Below, piece after piece: positions 23,835-48,863 of a DNA stretch of 64,000 nucleotides. Origin of the DNA: Candidatus Babeliales bacterium (GTDB lineage: Bacteria > Babelota > Babeliae > Babelales > JANWKD01); the NCBI GenBank assembly GCA_963722075.1, contig CAVRJM010000001.1:672001-736000 (forward strand), in the 5' to 3' direction. The notes beneath the pieces are model-generated. The model had not been told where the DNA came from, did no database searches, and saw only the letters and a program-made list of their open reading frames with translations. Made by a program: the position numbers and the translations under genes. Numbering within the stretch: position 1 is the first letter of the stretch; every line of letters begins with the position of its first letter.

Positions 23835-23855
23835 AAGGTCAAGAGGGAGATTTTT

Positions 23856-25334
23856 TTGAGCATTTATTTTCTTATCGTTCTATTATTTTTATCCCCCTTT
23901 ACTATCTATTCCCGTACTTATCATGATCAGCGCTGGGATTGGAGCACCATTGATCTTTCCCCAATTATTTTCCCTCGCAATTTTATTATCGGAACCGCTG
24001 CTTCTGCAATGCAAACTGAAGGAATCGTGACGGTGAATAACCAAAACACCATTAATAGCTGGACGGTTTGGGAATCACAACATATCTTTAAAGACGGTAT
24101 TTTACAACCTCGTTTTGAAGCAAAACGCCGCGTCGGTGCCGCTTGTGATCATTGGAATTTATATGGAGTTGATTTTCAACTTGCTGCTGAAATTGGGATA
24201 AAAGCACACCGATTCTCTCTTGAATGGAGTAAAATAGAGCCACAAAAAGGAGTTTTTGATGAGCAAGCAATGCAGCATTACATTGATTACACCTGGGAAT
24301 TAATAAAAAATAAGATTATTCCTATCCCAACTCTTTTCCATCATACCTGGCCATTATGGTTTGATTATCCTGATCAGGATAATCATGAAAAAAATCCTCG
24401 CAAACCAGGCTTTCAAGACTCACGTAATATTGCTGATTATGTGGAATATGCGATCTATGTTTTTACTGCGTATCAAAAAGCAGGCTTACTTAATTATGTA
24501 AAATTATGGCTTACCTTTAATGAACCCGTAGCGCACACTCTTGCCGCGTATATTTATTCAAAATATCCTCCGGGCAAAAAGTATCGCTTCAGATTATGCG
24601 GTATTGTAACCAAAAATATGCTTGATGCACATATTGCAGTATATGAAGCATTTAAAAGCATCGATCCAACAGTTAAAATAAGTTTTGCTCATATGATGCA
24701 ACCAATTCAACCATACCATACGTGGAATCCGTTAGATCAACTCCCCGCTATCATTTTTGATTACTTACTAAATGATGTTGCACTTCTATATTTTAAAACG
24801 GGCTATTTCAATTGGATGTGGCTTGTGCGCGGATTTAATGAAAATGCCCGTAATAAACTTGATTTTATTGGCGTTAATTATTATACCCATACCCTATTAA
24901 AAATGTTTAATGAAGCTACGCGACCTGATGAACAATTATCAGATCCCTATGATGATAAACAAGGAAAAGCGATATATGCAGAGGGCCTTTATTATTCTCT
25001 GCAAAAAGCAGCACAATTAAACGTACCAATTATCATTACTGAAAATGGTTTTGCCACTGACGATAAAGATCTGCGTGAAGAATATATCCGAAAACATCTC
25101 TATGTAATCTTGAAAGCAATGGAAGAAGGTATTGATATTCGCGGCTATTTATTTTGGACACTTACCGATTGCTTTGGCTGGAATAGCGCTCTTCATAGTA
25201 AACACGGTATTTTTAAAGTTAACTTTGAAACGCAAGAACGCATTTTAAAAGAAAGTGCACAATGCCTCATTGATATTATAAGAGAAAGCGTTCAATCACC
25301 AATTGCAATTGAGCCCTTAACACCGTTATTTTAA
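23856..25334 (+). CDS. secreted glycoside hydrolase family 1 (copy 1)
   Basis: QTEG, HRFSLEWSKIEP, TFNEP, ITENG; likely TTG start at 23856 after GAGGGAG, since the longer ORF runs through REPs. Confidence 0.9.
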   Translation: MSIYFLIVLLFLSPFTIYSRTYHDQRWDWSTIDLSPIIFPRNFIIGTAASAMQTEGIVTVNNQNTINSWTVWESQHIFKDGILQPRFEAKRRVGAACDHWNLYGVDFQLAAEIGIKAHRFSLEWSKIEPQKGVFDEQAMQHYIDYTWELIKNKIIPIPTLFHHTWPLWFDYPDQDNHEKNPRKPGFQDSRNIADYVEYAIYVFTAYQKAGLLNYVKLWLTFNEPVAHTLAAYIYSKYPPGKKYRFRLCGIVTKNMLDAHIAVYEAFKSIDPTVKISFAHMMQPIQPYHTWNPLDQLPAIIFDYLLNDVALLYFKTGYFNWMWLVRGFNENARNKLDFIGVNYYTHTLLKMFNEATRPDEQLSDPYDDKQGKAIYAEGLYYSLQKAAQLNVPIIITENGFATDDKDLREEYIRKHLYVILKAMEEGIDIRGYLFWTLTDCFGWNSALHSKHGIFKVNFETQERILKESAQCLIDIIRESVQSPIAIEPLTPLF

Positions 25335-31957: not shown

Positions 31958-32202
31958 CTGGATTCTTACGGCCTAAAAGGCCTCAGAATGACGAAAGGAG
32001 CTATGCATGTCATCCTGAACGAAGTGTAAGGATCCAGCAAATAAATCAAAACATTTTTCTCCGAACCTGGATTGCTTCGATCCGTCTTCGTTAATCCGGC
32101 CGTCGCTAAAAGCTATGGCGGAGTAAACAACTACGCCGGACAGGCATGCTTCTTGACGGAATCCGGCGAAGCCTTGGCGAAGTCGGACGCATTCGCAACG
32201 AC
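31958..32202. repeat. REP doublet (31958-31992, 32009-32037) plus composite nested REP (32067-32202)
   Basis: simple units plus CTGGATTGCTTCGA[107-bp cargo 32081-32187]...TCGCAACGAC. Confidence 0.88.
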
Positions 32203-32323
32203 GTACATTAATAATTTTATACCATTTGAGCAAGATTTTTTGCTTAAATACTTATTATTTGGAACATCTGCCCGTCATCATCCCGGAGAAACAATGCAAG
32301 GTTATTGTTAAATGAGAAACTAA

Positions 32324-32746
32324 TTATGCTGAAACATCATGAAATTTTTGACCCATAAAGATAATAATGCGGGATATCTTTTTAAGTGGGCGGATGGATA
32401 TAGAGCAATATTTATTTGGCTTTTCGAAGTTTAAGAGAGATTCAGAACCCTTAAATGCATTGGTTTGCCACCAACCAAGCCGCTCCATTTCTTCTTGATA
32501 AAAGTTAGTTGCATGTTGATAATCAATCGGAACTTCATAGGTAATTAAAGAGCTCTCATCAACACAAGCACTATTATTAATATTTTGTACCAGTTGCGCA
32601 TTCATAAGGACCGGTACATCATATAATTTTGCTTCTAAATGCTTACTTTGCCAGCGCTCAGAAAGAAGATCCTGATTATTTCGTTTACATGAGGAAAAAA
32701 AAGCCAGGAATATAAAAAGCCCTGGCCACCATATTTTATTCAGCAT
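32324..32746 (-). CDS. hypothetical lipoprotein
   Basis: lipobox-like FLAFFSS-C; start overlaps rplS stop. Confidence 0.7.
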   Translation of the reverse strand: MLNKIWWPGLFIFLAFFSSCKRNNQDLLSERWQSKHLEAKLYDVPVLMNAQLVQNINNSACVDESSLITYEVPIDYQHATNFYQEEMERLGWWQTNAFKGSESLLNFEKPNKYCSISIRPLKKISRIIIFMGQKFHDVSA

Positions 32747-33168
32747 TACTCAGCGATCATTTCTGTTTCACCAGGAACATTAGGAATAAAGTTGCTCTCT
32801 TGGGATATTGCTTTCTTAGGCTGTACACGTGCTGCTTTACCTATACGTTTTCTCATATAGTATAATTTTGCGCGTCTTACCTTGCCGGAACGAACAAACT
32901 TAATAGAAGCTATTAAGGGAGAGAAATAGGGGAAAATCTTTTCAACTGATACTGAATTTGCCCCAATACGGCGCACGGTAAAGGTTGTTGAAATACCACT
33001 ATTATTAAAGGCTATTACATCCCCTTCAAAATCTTGTAAGCGTTCTTTTTCGCCTTCTTTGATCTTTTGGGAAATAATAATAGTATCACCGATGGTAAAT
33101 GCGGGGAACTTACGGTCGATCATATCAACATTTTTAATGGTTTCTTTAGTATATTTTTTAGCCTTCAT
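32746..33168 (-). CDS. rplS: 50S ribosomal protein L19
   Basis: F..GDT....KIKEGEKERLQDFEG.VI, TFTVRR, GKVRRAKLYY. Confidence 0.97.
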   Translation of the reverse strand: MKAKKYTKETIKNVDMIDRKFPAFTIGDTIIISQKIKEGEKERLQDFEGDVIAFNNSGISTTFTVRRIGANSVSVEKIFPYFSPLIASIKFVRSGKVRRAKLYYMRKRIGKAARVQPKKAISQESNFIPNVPGETEMIAE

Positions 33169-33334
33169 GGGGATTAATCCTTTGAATTATCTAGAAAAAA
33201 GCTCTTTAAAATTAGAAATATATATACTAGTATAGGGAAAAATTGCAATTATGCCAATATGGAGTCTTTATAAAAGAATCATTAAATTATTTCCTAATTG
33301 AATTTTTATATTAGAAATCCCAAGGGAGTCACTT

Positions 33335-34174
33335 ATGAAAGCCACCTATTTATTAATTTTGGTGTTTAATATATCAATGCTGACCGCAATGGAAAATGGT
33401 CATCATCAAAGCACGTATGTTGCAAATGATTTTTACTTTCATAAGAAATATAAGCTGCACCAAAATACCGATTTTTTTACCGTAGTTATAAACATTTTAA
33501 AAAGAAGAATAAAAAACTTTACCCAAAAGAAATTATGCAACGAATTTACTATTATTTCACAACATTCATTAGAAACAGTCCCCTCTATATCATTTACCAT
33601 AGAAGATATTAAAGAGGACCCGAAGAAAAAGCATCAGCGATTGATCATTGATATGCGTAATTATAACAAGGCAATTATTACTCCCTATTTGGCAGAACTT
33701 GAACAACTTAGGCATAAAAATAAATTGCTCGTAGAAATGGCACAAAGGGCTGAAAAACAGGGAGAAGAACTTACACAAGAATGGAAAAGTAGAATAAGTA
33801 AACTTGAACACATAGTGCTATTACAAAATGAGGCTGCAGGAAAAGACACAGAACTACTCAGTAAAGAATGGCAAAGAAGGTTAAACGAACTTAATGAAAA
33901 TCATAAAAAAGAACTTGTAGAATTCCAACAACAACATGATGATGAAATTATAAAATTAAATAAGCTTGTTAATTCTTATATGCATTCCGCTAAATCACCC
34001 GACACAACTCTTCAAATTGCTCAACCAATAAAAAGCAGTTTTCATCCTGCTCCAATTCAAAGTAACTTCTTCCAAAAACATCCTTACATAACTCCCTTAA
34101 CAACCTTATGCTTAGGCATCGCTGGTACGTTTGTATGGATGAAATATGCAGATCATTTAAAGAGCTTTTTATAA
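33335..34174 (+). CDS. secreted coiled-coil protein with C-terminal TM
   Basis: signal ending LTA-ME; heptad region; C-terminal hydrophobic helix. Confidence 0.75.
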
Positions 34175-35145
34175 TACCCAAAGCCTTCTTTTTCTGGATC
34201 TTCAACGGGAATAAACCGCATTGCGGCGGAATTCATACAATAACGCAATCCCGTTGGCGCCGGGCCATCATTAAATACATGTCCTAAATGAGAATCACCT
34301 TTTTTACTGCGTACCTCAGTTCGCGGAGAAATTCCGGTCGTATCTTCCTTTTGAATAATATTCTTTGGTTCAATTGGTTGAGTAAAACTTGGCCACCCAG
34401 TACCCGAATCATATTTATCTAAAGAACTAAAAAGTGGTTCACCAGTAACAACGTCAACATATATGCCCGGTCTTTTATTATCCCAGTATTCATTATCAAA
34501 TGGCTTTTCAGTTTGATCTAATTGCGTAACTTCGTATTGCAGTGGTGTTAACTTCTTTTGCAATTCTTGTTCAGAAGATGATGTCGGTTGCTTTTCAATC
34601 TTATTTGCCCATGCTTGGCTAATAAAACTATCACGCCCAGAATTGGATCGATATAATGAATAGCCCTGAGGATTTTTTTTATAATAATCTTGGTGATATT
34701 CTTCGGCCTTATAAAATGGGGATTCTTTGAGAATTTCAGTAACAATCGGTTTTTTAAATCTACCTGATTGTTGTAATTCTTGTTTTGATTTTTCAGCGAG
34801 TTCCTTTTGATGCTCATCATGATAAAAAATAGCTGATCTATAGTGTGGCCCTCGATCAACAAATTGCCCGCCAGAATCAGTGGGATCAATCTGCTGCCAA
34901 AAAGTATCAAGTAATTTTTCATATGAGATTATGGATGGGTCATAAATAATTTGATTGGCCTCAATATGACCCTTTTGAGCATAATCATTGTAGGTGGGAT
35001 TTTCTCCGGTGCCACCCGTATAACCAGCAACCACACTCACCACACCGTTTAATTTTTCAAACGGTGATTGCATACACCAAAAACAACCACCAGCAAACGT
35101 AGCTTTTTCAAGCTTTTTATTAGTATCCGTTGTATTAGCTACCAT
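34153..35145 (-). CDS. msrAB: bifunctional methionine sulfoxide reductase MsrA/MsrB
   Basis: [42 protein letters not shown]. Confidence 0.96.
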
Positions 35146-35456
35146 CGTATCACCTCTCTACAAAACTAAAAACGGGCGAATAGAAATTTGAATATTAGTT
35201 ATTGAGTACAATACAAAATTGTATACGGTCATTGCAATTAAGAAATATATAAAATCATACTGTTACTCGATTTAAATAAAGGCTTTGATATAATTTAAGT
35301 AAAATTCTATAAATTGGGGTAACGGGAGCATCCTTAGATGCTCAATTAATTAAATTGATTATCTGCAATTATATTTATTTCTTACGCATATTTCTTAACC
35401 GTATGCTTGGAAAAAACTAATATCTATTTTTTAACCACTATTTTTTGAGGAATTCA

Positions 35457-37325
35457 ATGAATTACAATTATAATTATAATGTTGTTCGTTTTTGCTTTTT
35501 TATATTATTACTTTTTCATCATGCATGCTCAAGCTGTGAGGCATCCGATCGTTGTCATTCGGGTTTAAGCACATCGGTTATAACAAAAAATGAAGAGCGG
35601 GATTTGGAGCTTTTTGACTCTCTTAACCAGTCTCATCAAGGCATTTTTTCGGTTTTTGATAAAACCTACACTGCATCAGGTAAATTACGCTTGATGTATC
35701 ATTTAAAAAACCCAACAACTGATGTTTCACTTCTTAAATTACGGCAAGAGCAGATTAAGTTTTTACTTGAAAATCCTACATTACTTGAAGAAATAAAAGG
35801 ACTGCTTGCACGCATTAAAGCTGCTGAACCCGATCTATTATATTTTATTAATAACCAAGAAGATCCGGTTGCGCATACTATTATTGATACCTTCTACTTC
35901 AAGAATACCCTGTTAAAAGATTTAAATGAAAGTAGTATTGCTCTTGATGTACGTAACTACCTAAAGCAGCTTGGCTTATTTAGCCCGGTAATTGAGCATC
36001 TCGTGTTTCATTTTGCTCTTTCCTTTATTCAGGAAAAATTAACGCAGAATCCTACTGAGCATCACCACCATCATCACGATCATGAGGCTCATCATGATCA
36101 CGCCCATAGCAATTGCTCTCATTATTGCGTAAGTAGTCTTAAAGCACCCGCTGATTCTTCAACTTTTGTTAAAGGTGCTTTTACTGCATTAAAAGCTGCT
36201 CACTTTGGCATGCACTTACTGGGTATCAAGGAAATGATTCAGCAAATGGGCGCAGAATTAGCTGTCGTAAATCAACTGTATAAAAAAGTTGCCTCGGTAA
36301 AAGAAGGTCTCCATGCAATTATTACGTTACATAATCGTATGCAAGAGAGTAATTATGTATACAATTCCTTCGCCTCTCAGCTGGTAGATAGTGATACTCT
36401 TAACATTGAATCAAATATAAAATTTTTTGCTCCGCTTCTTGATAGTACCTATTTTGACAGCAACAGCTCACTAGGATATTTCTCTCCTATTGGTAACACC
36501 GTATACAACTATCAGCTACTCAAGAATAATGCGAGTTTATTGCAATCTTTTATGGCAGCTGTAGCAGATATAGATGCACTGGTTTCTATTGTCGAATGGT
36601 GTAAAGAACAGACAACTAAAAAAGCGCCTGTTTGTTTTGTAGATTTTGTTACTGGGGTTTGTACACCGGTTATTGTACTAGAAGGCATGCGGCATGTGGG
36701 GCTTTCTCCAGACGATGCAGTTATGAATGATATTGAATTGAGTGCTGATAAAGGGGCTTATAAGTTTATTATCACCGGTCCGAATAAGTCAGGTAAATCG
36801 ACCATTATAAAAGCAGTAGGTCTCAATATTATTCTTGCACAAACTTTTGGTATTGCCGCGGCACATAATGCAAAAATTACCGTGTTTCGTAAATTATTAA
36901 CGTACATCACCATAACTGATGATATAGTACAAGATCGTTCACTGTTTGTGGCTGAATTATTACGTGCAGAAGAATGCATCCAGGCATTACAATCATTACC
37001 AACAGATGAGCTTGCGTGTATATTACTTGACGATTCATTATTTAAAGGTACCAGCCTTGAGAAATCGCAGGATATAGCACTTCGTTTTTTAATTAAGATA
37101 GGTAGTTATTCTAATAGTTGTGCTCTCATTGCTACTCACTGTGCTGCATTGACACAATTGGAGGAAGAAAACCCTACTATTTTTAAGAATTATCGCATTA
37201 AGATAGGCGCTGATGCACAGGGTAACGCCGAAAGTCTATTTATATTAGAAGAAGGGATTGCTAATCAAGCAGCTGTTTTTGATGTTATTAAAGGACAGCG
37301 CACGGCTTCTTTTTTAGATAACTAA
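35457..37325 (+). CDS. MutS-related (domain III/V) ATPase with signal-like N-terminus and His-rich insert
   Basis: TYTASGKLRL...P, ITGPNKSGKST, LAQTFG, SLFVAE, IATH. Confidence 0.8.
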   Translation: MNYNYNYNVVRFCFFILLLFHHACSSCEASDRCHSGLSTSVITKNEERDLELFDSLNQSHQGIFSVFDKTYTASGKLRLMYHLKNPTTDVSLLKLRQEQIKFLLENPTLLEEIKGLLARIKAAEPDLLYFINNQEDPVAHTIIDTFYFKNTLLKDLNESSIALDVRNYLKQLGLFSPVIEHLVFHFALSFIQEKLTQNPTEHHHHHHDHEAHHDHAHSNCSHYCVSSLKAPADSSTFVKGAFTALKAAHFGMHLLGIKEMIQQMGAELAVVNQLYKKVASVKEGLHAIITLHNRMQESNYVYNSFASQLVDSDTLNIESNIKFFAPLLDSTYFDSNSSLGYFSPIGNTVYNYQLLKNNASLLQSFMAAVADIDALVSIVEWCKEQTTKKAPVCFVDFVTGVCTPVIVLEGMRHVGLSPDDAVMNDIELSADKGAYKFIITGPNKSGKSTIIKAVGLNIILAQTFGIAAAHNAKITVFRKLLTYITITDDIVQDRSLFVAELLRAEECIQALQSLPTDELACILLDDSLFKGTSLEKSQDIALRFLIKIGSYSNSCALIATHCAALTQLEEENPTIFKNYRIKIGADAQGNAESLFILEEGIANQAAVFDVIKGQRTASFLDN

Positions 37326-37380
37326 ATATATAAATGAATGACATGAAGCAAAAAATACTTTTGCCTGTTTTTTTGCTTCA

Positions 37381-38691
37381 TCAGAGGTCCATTTTGGATA
37401 TATTGATTCCCAGCCAACGGTCAAAAATGATGGCCGCTGCTGAACGTACCGATAAATGATTAAAGGAAGAGAACCCTTCAATAGGAAGAAATAAATAATC
37501 ACATCTTTCTATTACTGATGGTGCTAAACCACGTCCTGTACCAAATATAAATAGCACCGGGCGTTTTTCATGCCACACCTTAGATTGATCATAATAAGTA
37601 ATAGAAGGAGCACCCTGCTCATTAGTATGTGCTGAAGTTGCTATGATAATTGGCTTTTTATCTTCTTTTTGCTCGATAGTCTTAATAGCCTCATCTAACG
37701 ATGAAACTACGTGCACGGCATTCACTGCTTGATGGCGATGGGGATTATAATCGATGCCCACGCCTGTTTTCCAAAATTCAAGAAGTCGATTAACAATTTT
37801 TTGTTGGTCTATTAAAGGCGTAACAATAAAATATTCTTTAATGCCATACGTTTTTGCCGAACGTGCAATATCATGAATATCTAAGGAAGTTACTGAGGTT
37901 GTTCCTTTTTGATCATGCGGCAAAAGAATCTCATCATGCATTAATACACAATAATGTGGGGGAATATATGCTTGAGCAATCGATCGTTGCTTTGCTGATG
38001 TTGGATACGAGCGTAACCATTCAAAATGATGTAACACGGTTTTTTGAGCTGCCTGTTCCTGCCGCCACTGTTCAATTTTTTCATGATTACCTGAGCGAAC
38101 TATCTCAGGCACTTGATGCCCCTTCCAGACTACCGGTGCTGTGTATTCAGGATAATCAACAAAGGGTCCTGAAAATGATTCTCGTTCAATAGATTCTTTT
38201 TTTCCTACCACCTCTGGCAATAATCGTACCATTCCTTCTAACAGCACCATGGCTGCCAAATCGCCTGCCATAATAACAAAATCACCCAGAGAAACGGTAA
38301 GATCTTCATACTCCAATTCAACACGTGCATCCATCCCTTCATAGCGGGCCGGAAACAGCATAAGATGATTCGTTTCTTGTGCTTTTTTTGTTATATACGC
38401 TAAAAGTGGTTGATTAAGTTTTTTGCCTTGAGGCGAAAAAAAAACTCTAAACCCACGCCCATACTTGCTCTCCTGGTTGGTAACAAATTGCTCAACAAGA
38501 TCCGGGCGCAAAAGCATTCCTGGGCCGGGGCCAAACGTGGGGGAATCAATACGTTCTTTAGGTTGTACTAAAGAAAAATAAGAAATAATATCATAATGAA
38601 CTAACGATTTTTCTTGAGAACGACCCATAAGACTCGTTTTTAAAAAAACATCATATAGATCAGGAAAAACCGTAATAAGAGAAATATTCAC
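37381..38691 (-). CDS. trmD: tRNA m1G37 methyltransferase TrmD fused to a second SPOUT (DUF2168-like) domain
   Basis: ITVFPD, FGPGPGML, SPQG, RYEGMD.R, SGNH; then LDIHDIARSAKTYG and FNHLSVRSAAAII.DR. Confidence 0.92.
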   Translation of the reverse strand: MNISLITVFPDLYDVFLKTSLMGRSQEKSLVHYDIISYFSLVQPKERIDSPTFGPGPGMLLRPDLVEQFVTNQESKYGRGFRVFFSPQGKKLNQPLLAYITKKAQETNHLMLFPARYEGMDARVELEYEDLTVSLGDFVIMAGDLAAMVLLEGMVRLLPEVVGKKESIERESFSGPFVDYPEYTAPVVWKGHQVPEIVRSGNHEKIEQWRQEQAAQKTVLHHFEWLRSYPTSAKQRSIAQAYIPPHYCVLMHDEILLPHDQKGTTSVTSLDIHDIARSAKTYGIKEYFIVTPLIDQQKIVNRLLEFWKTGVGIDYNPHRHQAVNAVHVVSSLDEAIKTIEQKEDKKPIIIATSAHTNEQGAPSITYYDQSKVWHEKRPVLFIFGTGRGLAPSVIERCDYLFLPIEGFSSFNHLSVRSAAAIIFDRWLGINISKMDL

Positions 38692-38924
38692 TGAGTACTA
38701 TCTAAATTAATTTCAATATTGTCGCGGCTATCTATACTATTAACTAAAGCACGAATTGCTCGTACTACACGCCCTTCTTTACCGATAATTCGCTTAAGAT
38801 CAGGATGGGCTACTCGTACTTCTATAATAGTCTTAGGACCTGAATCAGGTTTTTCTCTTACAAGAACTAGCTGTGGGTTATCTACCAACTGCTTTACAAT
38901 ATATTCAACAAGATCGGTTACCAT
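38688..38924 (-). CDS. khpA: KH-domain RNA-binding protein
   Basis: LVEYIVKQLVDNP...DLKRIIGKEGR..AIR; position after rpsP. Confidence 0.88.
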   Translation of the reverse strand: MVTDLVEYIVKQLVDNPQLVLVREKPDSGPKTIIEVRVAHPDLKRIIGKEGRVVRAIRALVNSIDSRDNIEINLDSTQ

Positions 38925-38935
38925 TCTATCCTATA

Positions 38936-39190
38936 TTATGCCGCAGCTGTCTTTTGCTTATTATATTTTTTTTGTAATTTAGAAACTGATTCAGTTGGAA
39001 TAGCACCTTTAGAAATCCAATCATTGATTCGCTCTTGATGGAATTGGATAATTTCACCCGTAAGCGGGTTATACGTACCAAGATCCTCAATAAACATCCC
39101 ATCCCTTTTTCTGCGAGAATCGATCGCTACAATTCTATAAAATGGGGCCTTTTTTTTGCCAATGCGCGATAGACGTATCTTAACGGCCAT
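38936..39190 (-). CDS. rpsP: 30S ribosomal protein S16
   Basis: VKIRL.R.GKKK.PFYRIVA.DSR..RDG..IE.LG.YNP. Confidence 0.98.
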   Translation of the reverse strand: MAVKIRLSRIGKKKAPFYRIVAIDSRRKRDGMFIEDLGTYNPLTGEIIQFHQERINDWISKGAIPTESVSKLQKKYNKQKTAAA

Positions 39191-39285
39191 CAATAATTCC
39201 TTTCAATAAGTGTACTATTTAGATAAGGTAAATATACCATAAATACTCTTTTTTTCAAATGTTAACCAAAATGAGGTATTAATTA

Positions 39286-39467
39286 ATGGATTCCCATCCG
39301 TCTACGTTAATCCAGCCGTCACTAAAAGCTATGGCGGAGTAAATAACTACGCCGGACAGGCATGCTGTTAACGGAATCCGGCGAAGCCATAGGCGAAGTC
39401 GGACGCGTTCGGAATGACAATCAGAACGACAATTGTCATGGCGAATTTGCGCTGAGCTTCCATTAAT
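39286..39467. repeat. composite nested REP (39286-39418) with degenerate inverted partner (39435-39467)
   Basis: ATGGATTCCCA[cargo 39297-39403]...TTCGGAATGAC. Confidence 0.88.
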
Positions 39468-39501
39468 AAAATCATTCATCTTGATATATTTTCTATTTGA
39501 A

Positions 39502-40839
39502 TTAAAACATGCCGGGCATGCGTCCAAGTTTTTTGAACATCTTTAAAAATTGCTGACTTTTTTCAAATTTATCCAAGAATTCATGTATCTGCGTCACGCT
39601 AACGCCCGCCCCTTTAGCAATACGCTGTTTTCGAGATCCATTCAGTATTTGTGGGCAAAGCCGTTCTTTTTTATTCATCGAATTAATAATTGCCTGAAAT
39701 CGTTTTAACTCAGCTTCTCCTTTTTCAATCATTTCTGGAGAAATTTGTTTGGTTGAAACACCAGGTAGATAGTTCATGATCTGAGAAAGCGAGCCCATTT
39801 TATTAACCATCTGCAACTGTGTTGCAAAGTCCTGAAGGGTCATTTTTCCTTTATGAATTGAGCGCTCTAAGGCATCATGATCAGTTTGTTTTATTTTTTC
39901 TTGTGCTTGTTCAATAAGCGTTTGAATATCACCCATTCCTAATATGCGACTTGCCATTCGTTCAGCACGGCAATATTCCAAATCAGTAACTTTCTCACCA
40001 CTTCCCATAAAAACGATCGGTTTTTTTATAACATAGCGAAAAGCAAAGGCAGCGCCACCACGCGTCTGACTATCCATTTTGGTTAAAATAGCACCAGTAA
40101 ATCCAATACTATCTTCAAATGCTTGCGCAATACGCAATGATTCTTGCCCGGTCATAGCATCAAGTACTAAATATTTGTATTTAGGTTCAATTTTTTCATC
40201 AATAAGCTGTAATTCGCGTAGCATCGTATTATCAATATGCATTCTACCTGCAGTATCAAAAATCAAATGCTCAAACCCATTATTTTTATAATAATTATAG
40301 ATATCTTGAGTGGCCGCAAGAACTTCTTTATAGGCAGATCGGTAAAAAACCACCTCTAATTGCGCGGCTAAAATTTCTAATTGATCAAGAGCTGCTGGAC
40401 GGTAAAAATCTACTGAAGCAAGTAGAATCTTTCTTTTTTTGCCTCTTTTTTCCGCTTGCTTTTGAATAAAATAGGCTAATTTAGCAGCCGTCGTTGTTTT
40501 TCCTGAACCTTGCAAACCCATGAGCATTATTACTGAAGGGATCTGAAACGTAATGGTGTCAGGCCCACTCGTGCCCCCTAATAACGCCACAAATTTATCA
40601 TTAATAATTTTTATTAATTGTTCACCCGGCTTTATTGAACTGGTAATTAACTTTTGTCCCACCACTTCAGCGGTTACTTCTTGTATAAAAGTCTCAACCA
40701 GCTGATAAGGCACATCGGCTTCTAATAATGCCTCTTTTACCTTTTGTAAGGTATCCTGAATATTATGCTCAGTTAATTTATGTTGGCCGGTTAACCGAGA
40801 AAAGAGATGAGAAAATTTATTAGATAAGAAATCGAACAT
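39502..40839 (-). CDS. ffh: signal recognition particle protein
   Basis: ALLEADV, GLQGSGKTTT, DTAGR, DAMTGQ, TKMD, RILGMGD, M domain. Confidence 0.97.
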   Translation of the reverse strand: MFDFLSNKFSHLFSRLTGQHKLTEHNIQDTLQKVKEALLEADVPYQLVETFIQEVTAEVVGQKLITSSIKPGEQLIKIINDKFVALLGGTSGPDTITFQIPSVIMLMGLQGSGKTTTAAKLAYFIQKQAEKRGKKRKILLASVDFYRPAALDQLEILAAQLEVVFYRSAYKEVLAATQDIYNYYKNNGFEHLIFDTAGRMHIDNTMLRELQLIDEKIEPKYKYLVLDAMTGQESLRIAQAFEDSIGFTGAILTKMDSQTRGGAAFAFRYVIKKPIVFMGSGEKVTDLEYCRAERMASRILGMGDIQTLIEQAQEKIKQTDHDALERSIHKGKMTLQDFATQLQMVNKMGSLSQIMNYLPGVSTKQISPEMIEKGEAELKRFQAIINSMNKKERLCPQILNGSRKQRIAKGAGVSVTQIHEFLDKFEKSQQFLKMFKKLGRMPGMF

Positions 40840-40848
40840 ATAGGTTAC

Positions 40849-41184
40849 TCAATATAAAGCTTTAAGAATAAAATGAATACTAACCAAAGTTAACGCGCAT
40901 GTTGAAATTGCAGGCAATATAGTTTTTTTATATTTTGCATACGATGATTGTGTTTTTTTACTTAATTGCTCTAAATTACATGATTTTATTTCTTTTAATG
41001 AAAACTCATTAGCATTCTTGTTTGGTATTTTTTTTAACTTTTTTTTAGTTTTTTGTAATGAGCAATAAGCACCATAGCCAAAGGCCATCCCTATGCCCGA
41101 AAAAATAACAGAATCTATTATGCAATAAACTGATGAAGAACAAAGTAAGATAGATAAAAATAATAAGGTTTTCTTTAATAACAT
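40849..41184 (-). CDS. hypothetical membrane protein
   Basis: signal-like N-terminus and two hydrophobic helices; 9 bp upstream of ffh. Confidence 0.65.
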   Translation of the reverse strand: MLLKKTLLFLSILLCSSSVYCIIDSVIFSGIGMAFGYGAYCSLQKTKKKLKKIPNKNANEFSLKEIKSCNLEQLSKKTQSSYAKYKKTILPAISTCALTLVSIHFILKALY

Positions 41185-41335
41185 ACAGTTTCCTATAAAA
41201 TATTATTTTTTATTTTACCAATTGTATCAAATATCACAAGGAACATATTGTCCCTTTTTTAAACTCTTGCGATAACCATTAAAAAAAAGTTACTATTAAA
41301 CATATATTTTCTTTAAAAGGGACAAAAAGGGGAAT

Positions 41336-42334
41336 ATGGGACAATCAATAATGAATGCTATTCAGCATTCAAAAATTATCCAATCAGGGGCCGATTACGT
41401 TAAACGATTAGGAAATCATTTTTCAATTGCCCTACTCAATCCTATTTGTAAATTTTTTAGTATTCCTTCCGTGGATGGTATTATTGGCTATAAAACGTTC
41501 GCCAATTGTGCCATTGTGATGGGGGATCCGTTATGTAACAACCCTGAAGATATTCCTACGCTTACCATGGCCTTCCATGATTATTGCCAAAAGTACAAAA
41601 ATATTATTTACGTAGTTACCTCTGAAAATTTTACCAATTGGTCGTTAAATAATACCTGTACTCTTGCACTTCAAATTGGTAATGAGCTTATTTTAGATCC
41701 TCGCATTAATTATAAAGAACGTTCTGGAAGAAAAGCATCTCAATTGCGTAATAAATTTAATCAATCAATTCGCTGTGGTCTTGTAGTTAACGAGTATAAA
41801 GAGCACAATGCGCAGTTAGAAAAGGAAATCGAACAAGCAGGAGCCAGCTGGCTTAATAACCGATCGGGAATACAGCTTTTTAATTTACCCATCAACATTT
41901 TTGCTGGTCGTTCAGGTAAACGATGGTTTTATGCGCAACATAATAATAAAGTAGTGGGTATCCTTATTCTTAATAAATTAGAATTTTATCAAGGATGGGT
42001 ACTTAATGTGGTAATGCTAACACCCGACGCTCCTAACACCACCTCAGAATTCTTAGTCTTAAACATGTTAGAAACATTACGGGCCGAAGGATGTCCTTTT
42101 TTTTCAGTAGGAACACTGCCTACCGCTCAACTAGGACGTATAGAAGGATTTGGTACCATTGGCCAAAATCTAGTACAATGCTCATTTAAAGTTACTCAAT
42201 TACTACAATTACATGAACGGCAACGCTATTGGCAAAAATTCCAACCCGAGAGTAAACCCTCTTTTCTTCTTTTTAGCAAACCACGTATCCGACTCCGTGA
42301 AGCCTGGGCTATTGTGCGGGCATTCAGTTCATAA
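41336..42334 (+). CDS. DUF2156 / aminoacyl-phosphatidylglycerol synthase C-terminal (GNAT-like) domain protein
   Basis: IGY.....AIVMGDPL, IG.E..LD, PDAPN.TSEFL, QKFQP...P.FL. Confidence 0.8.
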   Translation: MGQSIMNAIQHSKIIQSGADYVKRLGNHFSIALLNPICKFFSIPSVDGIIGYKTFANCAIVMGDPLCNNPEDIPTLTMAFHDYCQKYKNIIYVVTSENFTNWSLNNTCTLALQIGNELILDPRINYKERSGRKASQLRNKFNQSIRCGLVVNEYKEHNAQLEKEIEQAGASWLNNRSGIQLFNLPINIFAGRSGKRWFYAQHNNKVVGILILNKLEFYQGWVLNVVMLTPDAPNTTSEFLVLNMLETLRAEGCPFFSVGTLPTAQLGRIEGFGTIGQNLVQCSFKVTQLLQLHERQRYWQKFQPESKPSFLLFSKPRIRLREAWAIVRAFSS

Positions 42335-42436
42335 ATTTTAACAATAACCCTTTGTGGCCAGCTTTTTCATAATGTAATAAATTATGATAAGCTTAGTGTT
42401 AAGTTAACCTAACTTAAGCCAAATTATACTACATCA

Positions 42437-42537
42437 GTCATTCTGAGATCTTGCCTGTGCAAGATCGTAAGAATCCAGTTATAAAAATAATGACTTTCTA
42501 TTCATTCACTGGATCCTCACGCTTCGCTCAGGATGAC
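42437..42537. repeat. inverted REP doublet (42437-42478, 42509-42537)
   Basis: GTCATTCTGAG..GTAAGAATCCAG and CTGGATCCTCACGCTTCGCTCAGGATGAC. Confidence 0.88.
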
Positions 42538-42634
42538 ATTTGAATATTTTATATCGCTGGTTTAACAAGTTAATATAATGTAAAATAGAAATCGAATCAC
42601 CATAATATTATATTTCCCCCGGAACCTTATTTAT

Positions 42635-43741
42635 ATGAAAAAGAAAGCTGAAAGCTTAGAAATTTACCGCCCTAAACTGTTACTAGTTGGCATCCATGCA
42701 CCGTATAATAGCACTCCCAATATTCAGTCCTATTATGAAGAATTTGTTAATCTGGTTAAATCAGATAATTTAACCTTTGATGAAGCAATTTTTTTTAAAT
42801 TACGAGATATTGACCCGAGCACCTTTATTTCCAAAGGTAAATTAGAAGAAATTGCTGAAATATGTGAAAAATATGATATTGATGAAATTATTATTTCAGA
42901 ACCGCTTACCCCACAACAAGAACGTAATTTGCGCGACTATTTACATCGCAAAGTATTTGATCGCACACAACTTATTTTAGAAATTTTTGAAAAAAATGCT
43001 CATTCAGCCGAAGGTAAGTTGCAAGTAGAAATTGCCATGCTCCAGCACAAAAAATCACGCTTGGCAGGCAAAGGAATCTCATTATCGCAGCAACGCGGTC
43101 GTGGCGTTATTGGAGGCGCTGGTGAAACGGGCAAAGAACGGGAACGTCGCCATATTGAAGAAGAGATTTTAAAACTAAAAAGAGAACTGAAACAACTGGA
43201 AAAAACAAAAGAAACGCAACGCAAGCAACGATTACAAAGTAAAGTTCCATTGCTTTGCTTAATTGGTTATACAAATGCTGGTAAATCAACCATTCTTAAT
43301 GCGCTCACCAAAAGCAATGTACTCGCTGAAGATAAATTATTTGCCACCCTTGATACTACCACCCGTCAACTTTTTATTGATGATCTCAAAGTTGGTACCC
43401 TCTCTGATACCGTAGGATTTATACAACTATTACCACATAATTTAATTGAAGCATTTAAATCGACGCTATCAGAACTTAATTACGCTGATCTGTTATTACA
43501 TGTCATCGATGTTTCTGATCGCAATTGGCAAAACCATATTCATGTTGTACATCATATTATTGAAGATTTAGGCATAGAAAAACCAATGCTCTATGTCTTT
43601 AATAAGGCAGATGCTGCGCAAATTACTCCCGCATTAACTGATTTGATAGAAAGCTTTAATCCTCACGTGCTTATAAGCGCTACCTCAAAAGAAGGAATTC
43701 AGCCCTTGAAAGACTTTTTAATTACCTGGAAATCGGATTAG
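42635..43741 (+). CDS. hflX: GTPase HflX
   Basis: DRTQLILEIF..NA.SAEGKLQVE, GYTNAGKST, LFATLD, DTVGFI, NKAD. Confidence 0.97.
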   Translation: MKKKAESLEIYRPKLLLVGIHAPYNSTPNIQSYYEEFVNLVKSDNLTFDEAIFFKLRDIDPSTFISKGKLEEIAEICEKYDIDEIIISEPLTPQQERNLRDYLHRKVFDRTQLILEIFEKNAHSAEGKLQVEIAMLQHKKSRLAGKGISLSQQRGRGVIGGAGETGKERERRHIEEEILKLKRELKQLEKTKETQRKQRLQSKVPLLCLIGYTNAGKSTILNALTKSNVLAEDKLFATLDTTTRQLFIDDLKVGTLSDTVGFIQLLPHNLIEAFKSTLSELNYADLLLHVIDVSDRNWQNHIHVVHHIIEDLGIEKPMLYVFNKADAAQITPALTDLIESFNPHVLISATSKEGIQPLKDFLITWKSD

Positions 43742-43751
43742 TTTTTTATTA

Positions 43752-43843
43752 ATGGATCCGCCTACGTTAAAACTACGGCGGACACAGTCCCCCACACCTC
43801 TGTCCCGGCATAGCTTTAGCGACGACGGATTCGTTCGGGACAA
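43752..43843. repeat. REP unit interrupted by two oppositely oriented hairpin modules
   Basis: ATGGA[43757-43787]TCCCCCACAC[43798-43829]TTCGTTCGGGAC. Confidence 0.82.
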
Positions 43844-43945
43844 GAAGGAAAATTAAATAAATAACATAAGACTCTTTAAACTTTCATCAAAATATACTAT
43901 TGTTTGGTAAGTTGTAAAAAAAACACTTTTTTACTTAGGAGTCGT

Positions 43946-44947
43946 ATGAATAAATTAACAACTAGCTTACTCGTTGTAGCTTCACTCAATTTTTGCGCAC
44001 AAGCAATGGAACAGCAGCAACAAGTACAAACCATAACCCTTATGACAGAAACACCAAAATTATCTAAGAATCAAAAGAATAAATTTGAAAAAAAGTCACC
44101 ACAAGAGCTCGGCACTAGTTTTATGAATTTATCAGATCAATTAGCCAAGGCACACAAAAACGCTGTTGATGTAGCAAAAGATCCTCGCAGGTCCCAAAGA
44201 GCTGAGATTTGGAATCTTTTAAAAATTAAAGTTGGTAAGGATAAAGCACGAGAATATGCATATGGATACGCCGATGATTTTAGCGATGAAGAAAAAGACT
44301 TTGAGCAAATAGATAAGGATGATTATTCATGGAAACGCTTTTATGAAAACTCAAAGCGTAAAACCGATACGGTTATTTCTGGAATTGGCACCAAAAAAGA
44401 AGTTGCTGAAACTAGTATAATTGCTGCTCAACAACGAGAAAAAGTAATTGAAGAAAAAACACGAAATGTAAAAGAACAAAATGATGCAGCAATAAAAATT
44501 CTTAACGCTAAAATTGAAGAACTTGAATTATTAAGCAAAAAACATGAAGATGTCGCGGAAAAAGAATTAGAAGAAATTGCTCATGAAGTAGGAGTTTTAC
44601 AATCTTCAGTTGAGAAATATACCAAAGCAATTGTTCACCACACCAATACAAAGAAGCAGAATGAGGCAGTATTGATGAAAGTGAAAGAAGAACGCACAAA
44701 AGAATTAGAAGAACTAGATAAAACTATTGAGCAATTTAATGGCGAGCTAGAAGCGTTATTACTTAATAATCAGCAGTCAAATTATGCAAAAATTAAAACC
44801 GATCTTGAAGGTTCCAAACAAAAAGCAGTTCAACGAAAAAAAGATTTGCATGCAGAATTGGATGATATTAATTACCGTTTACCAAAAATTAATGAACCCG
44901 GTTCAAAAACACGTTATTTAACAGGCTGGTTTTATTCAACAAAATAA
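43946..44947 (+). CDS. secreted coiled-coil protein
   Basis: AGGAG before ATG 43946; signal ending AQA-ME; long E/K heptads. Confidence 0.75.
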   Translation: MNKLTTSLLVVASLNFCAQAMEQQQQVQTITLMTETPKLSKNQKNKFEKKSPQELGTSFMNLSDQLAKAHKNAVDVAKDPRRSQRAEIWNLLKIKVGKDKAREYAYGYADDFSDEEKDFEQIDKDDYSWKRFYENSKRKTDTVISGIGTKKEVAETSIIAAQQREKVIEEKTRNVKEQNDAAIKILNAKIEELELLSKKHEDVAEKELEEIAHEVGVLQSSVEKYTKAIVHHTNTKKQNEAVLMKVKEERTKELEELDKTIEQFNGELEALLLNNQQSNYAKIKTDLEGSKQKAVQRKKDLHAELDDINYRLPKINEPGSKTRYLTGWFYSTK

Positions 44948-44968
44948 ATTCATAATCAACTTATTAAT

Positions 44969-45002
44969 AAAAAAGGCACATGCACAAACGTGTGCCTTTT
45001 TT
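44969..45002 (+). terminator. intrinsic terminator
   Basis: AAAAAAGGCACA...TGTGCCTTTTTT. Confidence 0.85.
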
Positions 45003-45074
45003 ATTGCCTAAATTTTTAACATCTCGTACACTTAAAAAAGTTTTCATATAATCATTTATAATTTTCATCTTCTT

Positions 45075-47327
45075 ATGCAACAAAATTTCAACGAATTCTT
45101 AAATCAACAACTGAATGCGCAACAACAACAAGCCGTGTTACAAAAAGATGGTGCATTATTAGTTATTGCTGGTGCTGGTTCAGGAAAAACGCGCATTATT
45201 ACCGCGCGTATTATAAATCTTATTGTTAATGAAAAATGCAATCCTGCTTCGATTGTAGCACTCACCTTCACTAATAAAGCCGCACAAGAAATGAAAGAAC
45301 GCATCACGCACTTTTTAGGCGCAGCCGCATCATCTATATTTATAGGTACCTTCCATTCATATTGCCTTTTACTATTGCGAAGCAATGCTCAGTTTCTTAA
45401 GATGCCAATTTTTACCATTTTGGATGCCGATGATCAACAGCAACTATTACAATCATTGATTAAAAGAAACGTATTACAAAAGAAAATCACTGCTAAAAAT
45501 CTTGCATACTCTATTTCATTTAAAAAAAATAATCTCAATAAAGGTGTAAATGATACGAACGCTGATGATCCGGTGATTGATCAGTTATATAAAGCATATG
45601 AAAAAGAAAAAAGAGTAAGTAAATCATTAGATTTTGATGATTTATTATTAGAAGTTTTAAATCTTTTTTCTACTCAAGAAACTTTTAAAACTATATTCCA
45701 ACAGCGCGTTCGCCATATTTTAGTAGATGAATATCAAGACACTAATACCGTACAGCATGAACTATTAAAACAAATGACCTTATCTGAAAAAAGATTAGCA
45801 GTCGATTCATTATGTGCCGTTGGCGATGAAGATCAATCAATCTATTCATGGCGCGGCGCTACCGTAGAAAATATGGTGAATTTTAAAAAAGATTTTCCTG
45901 ATACCATTACCATAAAAATTGAACAAAATTATCGCTCAGTGCAACCTATTTTAACTATTGCCAATCAAATAATACAACATAATAGTAACCGTAACGAAAA
46001 AAATTTATGGTCTGCGCGCGATGCCCAAAATAGAAGTCATACCATTACGTGCGTATCGGACTATCAAGAAGCAGACCTTATTGCGCAAGCAGTAAAAGCA
46101 TATCATCGTACTAAGAGAAAGAGTGCCATTGGCATTTTGTATAGAGCGCATTACCAATCGCGTATTATTGAAGAAACATTATTAAAAAATGGTATTGCCT
46201 ACACCATTATTGGCGGTATTCAATTCTATGAACGTAAAGAAATTAAAGATCTTTTAGCCTATTTAAAATTAATTGCTAATCCTTTTGATCGGGTCTCATT
46301 TTTTCGCGTTATTAATATACCGGCACGCGGCCTAGGTGAAAAGTTTGAAGAAGATGTACAAAAAATATGGAATACGCAACCTCTTTATGCATTTAATGAC
46401 GTACTTAATCATCTGATTGCAACCGGACAGGTGAGCGGAAAAAAAGCCGGACAAGTAAAAAAGTTTATTTCCTTACTAGCGCACATAGCGCATGATCATA
46501 AGCCAAGTAGTACCCTTACTCATGTTATCTATGAGACTGATTATTATGCCTATTTAAAAGAGCAATTTGAGCCAAAAGAAGCTGAGTCTCGTATCGATAA
46601 CGTTAAAGAATTATTACGTGCAGCAAAACATTTTGAAGATCAATCAATTAAATCAACCACACTCGATTTTTTACACGAAATTGCCTTAATGCAGGAAAAG
46701 ATAAAGGAGCATACTGATAATGAAGAACAGCTATTCCTGATGACCTTGCATAGCGCAAAAGGGTTAGAATTTGATTTTGTATTGTTGGCCGGATTAGAAG
46801 AAGGTATTTTCCCTTCTAACCATTCCTTATACAATCCTGAAGCAATTGAAGAAGAGCGACGCCTTTTATATGTAGGGATTACCCGAGCAAAAGAATATCT
46901 GGTAATCACTCATGCCCGTTATCGCTATAGCTTTGGTTCAATGTCTGATCAACGCGCTTCACGATTTTTATCAGAAGTTCCTGAACAATTATCAAAAAAG
47001 GTGGAAGTTTCTCGATCAAGCCAATTAGAACAGTATCAATTATTTGATCGTTGGTTTAATAATAAAACAGAAGCGGTGCGCCCTGCCATTATTACCTTTT
47101 CAATGCCTGGTTCTACTGGGCAGAAACAATCATCAACTTCCGTTACTCAAAAAACGTCTGCTGCCACAAACCAGTCATTTAAGAAATTGCAATCAGTTAA
47201 CCATGCAAAATTCGGAGTTGGCATTATCCAAGAAGTGGAAGAAAAAAATCCTTCCACTATTTATATTACTGCCAAATTTAAATCGGGCGTCAAAAAAATC
47301 AAATCAGATTTTGTAGAACGGGTGTGA
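45075..47327 (+). CDS. pcrA: UvrD/PcrA ATP-dependent DNA helicase
   Basis: AGAGSGKT, TFTNKAA, VDEYQDTN, VGDEDQSIYSWRGA, TLHSAKGLEF, EERRLLYVGITRA, C-terminal HAKFGVG. Confidence 0.95.
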   Translation: MQQNFNEFLNQQLNAQQQQAVLQKDGALLVIAGAGSGKTRIITARIINLIVNEKCNPASIVALTFTNKAAQEMKERITHFLGAAASSIFIGTFHSYCLLLLRSNAQFLKMPIFTILDADDQQQLLQSLIKRNVLQKKITAKNLAYSISFKKNNLNKGVNDTNADDPVIDQLYKAYEKEKRVSKSLDFDDLLLEVLNLFSTQETFKTIFQQRVRHILVDEYQDTNTVQHELLKQMTLSEKRLAVDSLCAVGDEDQSIYSWRGATVENMVNFKKDFPDTITIKIEQNYRSVQPILTIANQIIQHNSNRNEKNLWSARDAQNRSHTITCVSDYQEADLIAQAVKAYHRTKRKSAIGILYRAHYQSRIIEETLLKNGIAYTIIGGIQFYERKEIKDLLAYLKLIANPFDRVSFFRVINIPARGLGEKFEEDVQKIWNTQPLYAFNDVLNHLIATGQVSGKKAGQVKKFISLLAHIAHDHKPSSTLTHVIYETDYYAYLKEQFEPKEAESRIDNVKELLRAAKHFEDQSIKSTTLDFLHEIALMQEKIKEHTDNEEQLFLMTLHSAKGLEFDFVLLAGLEEGIFPSNHSLYNPEAIEEERRLLYVGITRAKEYLVITHARYRYSFGSMSDQRASRFLSEVPEQLSKKVEVSRSSQLEQYQLFDRWFNNKTEAVRPAIITFSMPGSTGQKQSSTSVTQKTSAATNQSFKKLQSVNHAKFGVGIIQEVEEKNPSTIYITAKFKSGVKKIKSDFVERV

Positions 47328-47329
47328 AA

Positions 47330-47827
47330 TTATTCCTTTTTCAATGGATTTTTTGGTAAAAATGCACGCAACATCCATGCCATTTTTTCATGTTTTTCAA
47401 GTACTTCAAGTAAGAAATTATTCGTTCCTAAATCATCATACTTATCTAACACCTTTGGCGCTTCATCGCGAATCAATCTAATAACGGTTTCTTGATCTTT
47501 AGCAAGCTGCTCAATCATTTGTAATGCATTTTTGCCACCACCAAAAAGTTCATCTTCAACCTTTGATAATTTTGCAAATTCTTTGAGAGAAGCTATCGCT
47601 TTACAACCAACCGAACGAACGCGCTCAGCAGTATCATCTACCATATCAAGTAGTTGCTCATATTGTTGTTCAAAAAATATATGCAACGCATGAAAATCAG
47701 CACCTTCAACATTCCAATGATAATTTAATGTTTTGGTATATAAACTATATTGATTTGCTAAGATCTTATTTAATATAGCAGCTACCTCATTGCGATTTTT
47801 TTCTGAAATTCCTATATCAACTTTCAT
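47330..47827 (-). CDS. dps: DNA starvation/stationary phase protection protein
   Basis: KT.NYHWNV.G..F..LH..FE.QY, D..AER, HEK.AWML. Confidence 0.95.
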   Translation of the reverse strand: MKVDIGISEKNRNEVAAILNKILANQYSLYTKTLNYHWNVEGADFHALHIFFEQQYEQLLDMVDDTAERVRSVGCKAIASLKEFAKLSKVEDELFGGGKNALQMIEQLAKDQETVIRLIRDEAPKVLDKYDDLGTNNFLLEVLEKHEKMAWMLRAFLPKNPLKKE

Positions 47828-47996
47828 AGTAATCCCTCTTATTATTAATTTTGTATTTTCTACAGTATAAGTAAATTACTTTTTTAACTGCAATATTTTT
47901 ATACTACAACTAGAATCAAAAGCAGTTACCGCTGTTGACGCTTTTTAATAACTGAGTAGACTTTTTCATATTACCATAAACATAAGAAAGGAATTT

Positions 47997-48638
47997 ATGA
48001 AAAAAATCAGCGTTTTATTAATAACCTCGGGCATGTTAACTGCATATGCAGATTTAAAAATGGATACTCCTCGCGTACCAGCAGGCCCTAGCGTTATTGC
48101 AAAAGATTCAACAAAATCTGTTCCTGAAACCGTAAAAATCCGTTATATCGATCCCTATAAAATTGTCCCTAATTTAGAACAATGGAAAGATGAACGTAAT
48201 ATCGTTCAAGCTGATTTAGATGCTCGCGCTAAACAAATTGAAGAATTACGTACCCTATACACCACTAAGACAAATGAAATTCAAAGCATGGGCTCAATGG
48301 CCAAAGATAAGGCTAAAGAAAGTGCTATAGAAGAACTCAGGCAATTAGAAACAAGTATTCAAATTAAACAACAAACATTCCAAGAACATGCTGAACGCGC
48401 TGGTCAAGAAGCACAAATGAAGATTTTTAAAGAAATAGAAACAGTAGCTAAAGAATATGCACAAGAAAATAATATTGATTTTATCTTTGCCGGTGGCGCT
48501 ATTTACGTAGCTGATGCTTATGATATTAGCGATGAAATTGCTCAGCGCATGAATAAGAAGTATCTAGCACAAAGAAAGACACCTGCAGTAACACCAAAGT
48601 TTGAATTACCTAAATCTGCTGGACCGCAGTTGAAATAA
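47997..48638 (+). CDS. OmpH/Skp-family periplasmic chaperone
   Basis: signal peptide; KI.YID; coiled coil; A....IDFIF....Y....DIS.EI...MN. Confidence 0.75.
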   Translation: MKKISVLLITSGMLTAYADLKMDTPRVPAGPSVIAKDSTKSVPETVKIRYIDPYKIVPNLEQWKDERNIVQADLDARAKQIEELRTLYTTKTNEIQSMGSMAKDKAKESAIEELRQLETSIQIKQQTFQEHAERAGQEAQMKIFKEIETVAKEYAQENNIDFIFAGGAIYVADAYDISDEIAQRMNKKYLAQRKTPAVTPKFELPKSAGPQLK

Positions 48639-48648
48639 AACTATAATA

Positions 48649-48863
48649 CTGGATCCTCACGTTCCGTCTCCGTTAATCCAGCCGTCGCTAAAAGCTATGG
48701 CGGAGTAAACAACTCCGCCGGACACGCGCTTGCTATTACGGAATCCGTCGTAGCCTTGACGAAGTCGGACGCGCGCTCCTCAGGATGACATAGTCTGCGT
48801 TGTAAGTTGAGGTTGAATGTCATTCCGAGTTTACGTGGGAATCCATTAATAAAATAAAAAGTC
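48649..48863. repeat. composite nested REP (48649-48789) plus simple inverted partner (48819-48846) and tail
   Basis: CTGGATCCTCACGT[cargo 48663-48769]...GCTCCTCAGGATGAC. Confidence 0.9.

Follow-up and report, generated by a model that had tools for sequence, protein, structure and literature searches.

It has long been asked how short palindromic repeats can multiply when no transposase is evident, and the question is addressed here for a stretch of 64,000 nucleotides from a Candidatus Babeliales genome (contig C1, 672001-736000, forward strand; below, the window) in which hairpin repeats lie inside other hairpin repeats. The genome probably belongs to Dependentiae, the label carried by the best named relative of one of its proteins. 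We call the outer, Ssn-like hairpin repeat a shell, the second hairpin family B, and a 107-bp composite inside certain shells the cargo. The closest described relatives of the shells are the motifs that accompany Ssn nucleases (Ssn-related motifs, SRM/NTS; Chenal et al. 2025, PMC11893778). Like these, the shells have a GTC tag, a hairpin and an ATCC end, occur in about 200 copies and flank, as inverted pairs, single-domain GIY-YIG genes of 96 residues. The text of that paper considered here describes neither nesting nor a second hairpin family and reports no test of mobility; in its main text the word "nested" does not occur. The shells also resemble the CGTC-tagged repetitive extragenic palindromes (REPs) in their tag and stem-loop, their stem variants and their heterodimers with spacers (Di Nocera et al. 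2013, PMC3733652). There, as far as the consulted sections go, DNA lies between partners and small stem-loops occur in the spacers, without hairpins at fixed points within a REP. With REPINs and their RAYT enzymes (Bertels and Rainey 2011, PMC3116915) they share inverted pairs as copying units and a repeat group beside its own enzyme gene, and some REPIN clusters are described in that paper as forming by REPINs inserting into or next to REPINs. Unlike the REPIN/RAYT pairs presented there, the enzymes here are GIY-YIG rather than Y1 proteins, and what is inserted is one hairpin from a different family, placed at exact recurring points and up to three levels deep.

The nesting is real, and it represents a new variant of known repeat systems, for which we propose a mechanism of nicking and copying. 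We lean slightly towards the following account: two hairpin families are nested, each lying beside its own group of GIY-YIG genes; B was probably written into shells and into itself by nicking and templated copying, whole shells spread through an Ssn-like system, and composites were converted into empty shells. The initial annotation of the window had reported three cargos, and these were found exactly where it placed them, at 32081-32187, 39297-39403 and 48663-48769, each 107 bp long and 87-92% alike (99/108, 97/109 and 95/109 identical columns). They lie, as it said, in shells of three stem types (TGC, TCC and CCT), each with a cargo-free form in the window. The three levels and the reversed third module were likewise borne out: B2 sits in the loop of B1, the cargo sits in the shell and B3 is reversed. 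All three modules are members of family B, and each cargo runs from a B1 left arm of 14 bp through B2 (34 bp), a B1 right arm of 12 bp, a 4-bp tail and a linker to B3. The features are as follows.

32067-32202, minus strand: filled Ssn-type shell with TGC stem; the GTC tag is at the right end and the motif reads on the minus strand.
32081-32144, plus strand: B1, outer B hairpin with CAGG tail, interrupted by the inner module (left arm 32081-32094, right arm 32129-32140, tail 32141-32144).
32095-32128, plus strand: B2, inner B hairpin of 34 bp including its GTAAAC tail, located in the B1 loop at GTTAA^AAC.
32145-32161, no strand assigned: cargo linker, variable; in the long-loop class it starts with bases probably derived from the shell.
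32162-32187, minus strand: B3, reversed B hairpin.
39286-39418, minus strand: filled shell with TCC stem, 3' of ffh (SRP54); cargo 39297-39403, B2 39311-39344, B3 39377-39403.
48649-48789, minus strand: filled shell with CCT stem, long-loop class, between ompH and pth; cargo 48663-48769, B2 48677-48710, B3 48744-48769.
43753-43842, minus strand: shell with two separate B insertions, one at 43757-43787 (plus strand, at GGA^T) and a reversed one ending at 43829.
23526-23622, minus strand: shell with CCC stem and two B insertions, absent from the initial annotation.
31958-31992, minus strand: empty neighbour shell with TCT stem.
32009-32037, plus strand: empty neighbour shell with CCT stem, inverted partner of the filled shell at 32067.
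39435-39463, plus strand: decayed inverted partner shell of GGC type.
48819-48846, plus strand: empty inverted partner shell with TCC stem.
23644-23672, plus strand: empty TGC shell.
23748-23776, plus strand: empty TCC shell with one stem mismatch.
23800-23834, minus strand: empty CCT long-loop shell.

Two details of the earlier description had to be changed. The inner module is indeed a nested hairpin, but it spans 34 bp and not 28, because only its removal together with the GTAAAC tail restores a junction, one that is seen 6 times elsewhere. The hairpin at 43757-43787, read before as the empty form of a cargo module, proved to be an insertion within a shell and falls into a different site class. 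Over the whole genome (1.47 Mb, 35% GC, 4 contigs) there are 21 cargos under 8 stem labels, with arms complementary in 19; B2 is present in 8, and the 13 genuine cargos without it all lie outside the window. Strain variation was considered as the source of joints in public contigs that skip 34 bases and was rejected, as they are explained by paralogous copies without B2.

Removal of B together with a tail of 4-6 nt restored junctions that are present in empty repeats, up to 18 times elsewhere, and left no target duplication; such a restored junction with a remainder of 4-5 nt was obtained for 23 of 102 B matches. Miniature inverted-repeat transposable elements of the classical kind duplicate their target, and the B junctions in shells and in B loops are clean in this respect; a short GCC(A) repeat is present at the junctions with tRNA ends. 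Four classes of insertion point were distinguished in shells: S1 at GGA^T (16 copies, 6 stem labels), S2 after the stem plus CA, TTCGA or YACGT (31 copies, 8 stem labels), S3 at stem plus GA^GC (17 copies, 5 stem labels) and S4 in the inner loop (10 copies, 6 stem labels). In B loops, B2 was found in 17 copies and four loop types, in each case immediately ahead of the inner stem's 3' strand. On inspection, most insertion points are no more than one base 5' of a helix strand, the exception being the S2 point of TGC shells. Every junction class begins exactly at the 5' TCC of B with a match of 1-4 bases on the left side, and the left-hand bases vary (TGGA, CCCA, GCGA, GCTT, CGAA, TTAA, GGCA, ACGT). 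For the cargo, the left junction coincides with the first base of B1 and the right one falls within a few shared shell bases. The composite had been taken for the mobile unit; at many kinds of site, however, it is the single B hairpin that is inserted, and not the 107 bp.

Slx1 nucleases cut at junctions of single strand and duplex. The enzyme of group B, described below, or a host nuclease guided by hairpin shape, may nick single-stranded hairpins next to a helix, whereupon a B copy would be joined by its 5' TCC end and the other end be resolved in a few bases of shared sequence. A mini-hairpin of 22 bases, module C, was also observed in B loops, at the point used by B2 (C1:270021, 1089091, 200147 and others; 13 of 15 pattern matches were real by eye). 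Four of its copies have B2 directly behind them, and it also occurs in the cargos of G003, a genome of another genus. B was seen as well in at least two other repeat families (in this genome, G000, at C1:200250 and 270011 and at 209844, 270361 and 1365568; also at locus L011), and a related genome, G001, has an apparent empty form of one of them.

The shells were collected genome-wide with a pattern that requires complementary arms. It matched 214, divided into 171 empty and 43 filled ones after five false flags had been moved, a total in which one locus counts twice. Along its GTC strand, a shell consists of the tag, a stem in which three paired bases vary, internal loops and the ATCC end. 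The shells have further features of SRM, namely a 5' (C)GTC tag, a palindromic stem, a C after the stem and an orientation, and differ from the motifs as published in their internal loops and in missing the degenerate search string (PMC11893778, in the portion used): none of the 171 empty shells matched it exactly and 58 came within 2 mismatches, with 2 exact matches in the whole genome. Because this string is missed, we call the shells SRM-like and, judging from their sequences, not strict SRM members. As side observations on their orientation, the strand reading TGGAT led in 13 of 42 filled shells against 85 of 169 empty ones (p 0.026, post hoc) and in 5 of the 21 shells with cargo (p 0.027, from a set of about seven tests made post hoc). 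No such bias appeared in the single-B classes, and it is not relied on here.

Three genes of a first GIY-YIG group (group A) are present in this genome, one intact at C1:1398408-1398695 with 96 residues, one open but divergent and one broken, and all three are flanked on both sides by inverted shells. The intact protein has a single GIY-YIG domain with Y7, Y18 and E64, where single-domain Ssn proteins, the clade of CDD family cd10448 that cuts single-stranded DNA immediately upstream of its motif, have about 94 residues with Y6, Y17 and E64; this comparison was made on sequence criteria. Group B comprises four genes, two of them broken; an intact one lies at C1:371244. B-type hairpins precede each one, and at three the hairpin comes right after a tRNA gene. 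Across the phylum, group A was found in 25 and group B in 91 of 151 genomes. When the best-scoring phylum loci alone were searched by pattern from -300 to +200 bases, this genome being left out, 16 of the 28 group A loci had a shell and 6 a B core, whereas 24 of the 29 group B loci had a B core and none a shell. A tRNA gene occurred at 1 of the 28 and at 23 of the 29. A third GIY-YIG type was noted at L127 (G154 C1:866009), flanked by a different inverted hairpin repeat.

B itself has a stem TCC(A)GCC/GGCGGA, a 3x3 internal loop, an inner stem of 3 bp and a short 3' tail, about 30 bases in all. Its pattern gave 80 matches in the genome and none in either of two main-contig copies generated by an order-3 Markov model, and among 81 copies found without a pairing rule the inner stem was perfectly paired in 73 (shuffled mean 25). 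Counting by arms gave 107 copies. Of these, 71 were assigned automatically to a position in or beside a shell, 23 were partial (by eye, 15 of them lie in shells), 10 were no more than 300 bases from a tRNA gene and 3 were elsewhere. The shells make up some 7 kb out of 300 kb outside long open reading frames, though the copies are not independent. A B-type hairpin pairing with the CCA end was present at 27 of the 36 tRNA genes (26 pattern matches, less one false one, plus two with long loops found by eye), in 16 cases as a shortened form. The Rfam search had no match in the window; in four loci, at E values up to 1, it returned tRNA alone, except for one weak match overlapping a tRNA.

Several minor observations concern these ends. 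Many tRNA-fused B hairpins are followed 40-60 bases on by a reversed B and resemble gene-less remnants of a group B cassette. The 3' end of what we take to be a transfer-messenger RNA at C1:1218384 also has a B-type hairpin. Several group B genes (L126, L131, L136, L145, L146; G000 C4:5471) follow conserved stretches that end in CCA or similar and are not tRNA-like; these are perhaps the 3' ends of unannotated RNAs. In other genomes (L053, L054, L029), group B genes are accompanied by partial tRNA copies with hairpins inserted in their loops.

The group B protein is a stand-alone GIY-YIG domain of 79 residues, 33% identical to group A over 55 residues, and both groups retain the catalytic positions Y, Y, R, H and E. 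It differs from Ssn proteins in not being flanked by SRM-like repeats, since none of its 29 loci has a shell. Predicted with an alignment, its structure is a confident GIY-YIG fold (predicted local distance difference test, pLDDT, 95; without an alignment the model was poor, pLDDT 53). The top match was a Slx1-type domain (7wme, Z 8.4, root-mean-square deviation 2.4 over 78 residues), followed by 6seh (Z 7.8), I-TevI (Z 6.9) and 7cq2 (Z 6.7); the Slx1-type values lie within about 1.5 of that for I-TevI. The best sequence match was the UPF0213 protein 1zg2, Slx1-type proteins were among the best profile matches, and an NCBIfam search gave nothing over the cut-off. In the model, the fold appears nearest to structure-specific nucleases of Slx1 type (PDB 7wme, 6seh, 7cq2), unlike which the group B protein stands alone beside tRNA genes and a cognate hairpin and is known here from gene and model. 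SLX1-like proteins are called a sparsely characterised sister clade of Ssn in the peer-review file of PMC11893778, as far as consulted. In the open-access literature searched, neither B nor its tRNA-linked genes nor the present nesting is described. A bolder proposal, which we hold tentatively and lean somewhat against, is that B and its Slx1-like 79-residue nuclease form an undescribed mobile system: its unit would be one 30-base hairpin at tRNA CCA ends, inserted by shape into helix junctions of other single-stranded hairpins as a parasite of Ssn repeats, with composites homing between dispersed repeats.

Among the enzymes suggested initially, GIY-YIG nucleases fit, as two separate groups, and a Y1 protein probably does not. 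That B is moved by a Y1 enzyme of IS200/RAYT type, or another transposase, seems very improbable to us. One Y1_Tnp gene does exist in the genome (C1:156495), and elements of the IS200/IS605 type likewise have hairpin ends and make no target duplication. This sole gene, however, has neither B nor shells in its flanks of 350-400 nt, where REPINs would be clustered beside it. Moreover, insertion of IS200/IS605 type uses a fixed target word, whereas the left junction bases of B vary, and B tracks the group B GIY-YIG genes across the phylum.

The initial annotation further held that the composite passes between shells independently of the shell sequence. The passage between shells is supported by the flanks, whereas the independence is not: the cargo tree follows inner-loop class and retains some stem signal. 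This tree was built with B2 removed; it comprises 75 columns, with 13 of 18 inner branches open. Loop class changed once on it (shuffled mean 6.6), stem 11 times (minimum 7, shuffled 14.0, P 0.008) and B2 presence 7 times (shuffled 6.7); within each loop class there was no stem signal (p 0.64 and 0.31). The approximately unbiased (AU) test rejected a single clade for the B2-bearing cargos (p 0.0007), for CCT (0.037) and for CCC (0.048), and not for TCC (0.44). Sister cargos at 435663, with B2, and 1176068, without it, were joined with support 97/95. With so short an alignment, and with conversion violating the model on which a tree rests, the comparison of flanks, applied to six cargos against empty shells, carries more weight. 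Empty shells made up 15 of the 17 best flank matches, but this figure is given no weight, since 171 empty shells stood against 16 filled ones. The filled shell at C1:804402 has an empty twin at C1:375761, with 52/54 left and 39/40 right flanking bases identical (91/94); the twin has a loop of four bases, CAAG, where the filled shell has 79 cargo bases, and the partner shell of the latter contains an additional B. Because of this flank-matched twin, we conclude from the sequences that at least one cargo did, in all appearance, change shells. In the window, the TGC and TCC cargos scored 29 and 26 against the flanks of empty shells with the same stem (shuffled maxima 5.5 and 8).

These data also bear on the possibility that no cargo changed shells, composites having duplicated whole while the three stem bases turned over in both arms by hairpin-templated correction. 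We consider this improbable. The single change of loop class on the cargo tree, the partial stem signal, the complementary arms in 19 of 21 copies and the lack of whole units at orthologous sites (see below) agree with it, but the filled and empty twins already strain it. Two TGC cargos, moreover, have mutually unrelated flanks (score -8), yet each has an empty relative of its own (29 and 56). The TTCG loop start is restricted to TGC shells (63/63) and is kept in them next to a cargo, and a loss of cargo by back-conversion would equally be an exchange with another shell. In the account that we favour, the composite would have been converted from filled to empty shells in the same way as B was inserted, resembling homing among dispersed repeats, while whole shells, or pairs of them, would have reached new intergenic sites as units, probably by means of the Ssn-like group A enzyme.

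The cargo is old. G003, a one-contig genome of another genus (g3), has 8 homologous cargos in long-loop shells, none with B2, and their B3 stem shows a compensatory change to TCCT/AGGA from TCCG/CGGA; we infer from this comparison that the composite was assembled before the split from g3. That the composites are artefacts of collapsed repeats in the assembly is barely credible. Such repeats are hard to assemble, and among the matches listed no public contig bridges any of the three cargos. All 21 cargos nevertheless differ in sequence, the homologous copies in G003 stand in a single contig, and a 452-base contig from a public run, which may be related to the source sample, equals 43511-43962 without a difference across the shell with two B insertions. 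Orthologous sites had been expected to occur filled and empty; in 4/4 relatives the whole shell is missing at ompH-pth and 3' of ffh and none holds an empty shell, these four being too distant (57-74% protein identity) to show one. At the 32067 site, G001, the one relative read, carries a different pair of shells, with no cargo in it, and gntR is absent from the locus.

The observations that weigh against the account favoured here are best considered together. At ompH-pth and 3' of ffh the four relatives have short spacers free of repeats, and these two loci were therefore gained as whole units. Much of the spread is, on the evidence of the cargo tree with its dependence on loop class and partly on stem, probably whole-unit copying. 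For the CCT cargo of the window no empty relative with matching flanks was found (score -1.5, against a null mean of -2.4), and whole composites fold modestly better than shuffled ones (z -1.1 to -1.9). Linkage of genes alone does not show that an enzyme moves a repeat. The S3 junction pattern occurred in none of 150 other genomes of the phylum and the TGC-junction pattern in 1 of 220 genomes, so that heavy nesting appears patchy. Finally, B subtype and tail are largely fixed for each junction class, therefore pointing to few founder insertions and much later copying rather than to frequent fresh insertion.

This last point leads to an alternative that we regard as unlikely while giving it real weight: a passive mosaic, in which a few old accidental B insertions were spread by ectopic gene conversion among about 200 similar repeats and the group B nuclease does no targeting. 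Besides the constant tails and subtypes, a cargo older than the split from g3 would be expected from it, and recurrent inner loops are found under more than one stem type even among empty shells (8/26). It does not readily account for many distinct junction classes that share one exact start at the 5' TCC, for B2 at a single structural point in four loop types, or for the near absence of free-standing B in unique DNA. In another family, in genome G154, B occupies the S3 point of a shell next to a group A gene and is oriented the other way, and metagenome locus L171 has B variants at both S1 and S3; this suggests from the sequences that the same points were used independently. In metagenome contigs the S3 pattern gave five stretches, with L171 alone a real composite by eye, and the TGC pattern had no match; the B2 pattern gave 7 matches in 5 related genomes, none of them a clear B-in-B at the GTTAA site.

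What the locus adds to the described systems is a reciprocal test of genes against repeats, a map of junctions, a pair of filled and empty twins and evidence for the exchange of a cargo of several modules. With mapped insertion points, such twins and two candidate enzymes with intact catalytic residues, the question of repeat multiplication becomes directly assayable with oligonucleotides. If the proposal made for B is true, B would be a tiny parasite of other repeats, and a second family of hairpin-specific single-strand nucleases would extend the Ssn toolkit.

A few neighbouring features may be mentioned. The open reading frame called from TTG at 23733 (window 23733-25334) crosses two shells, and its start is probably set too early. 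The GTPase gene at 42635-43741 ends at 43741, with the shell carrying two B insertions directly 3' of it. Elsewhere in the genome, seven near-identical elements resembling insertion sequences, with short inverted ends, were seen at G000 C1:143336, 242546, 292720, 865027, 1133250, 1259970 and 1412280.

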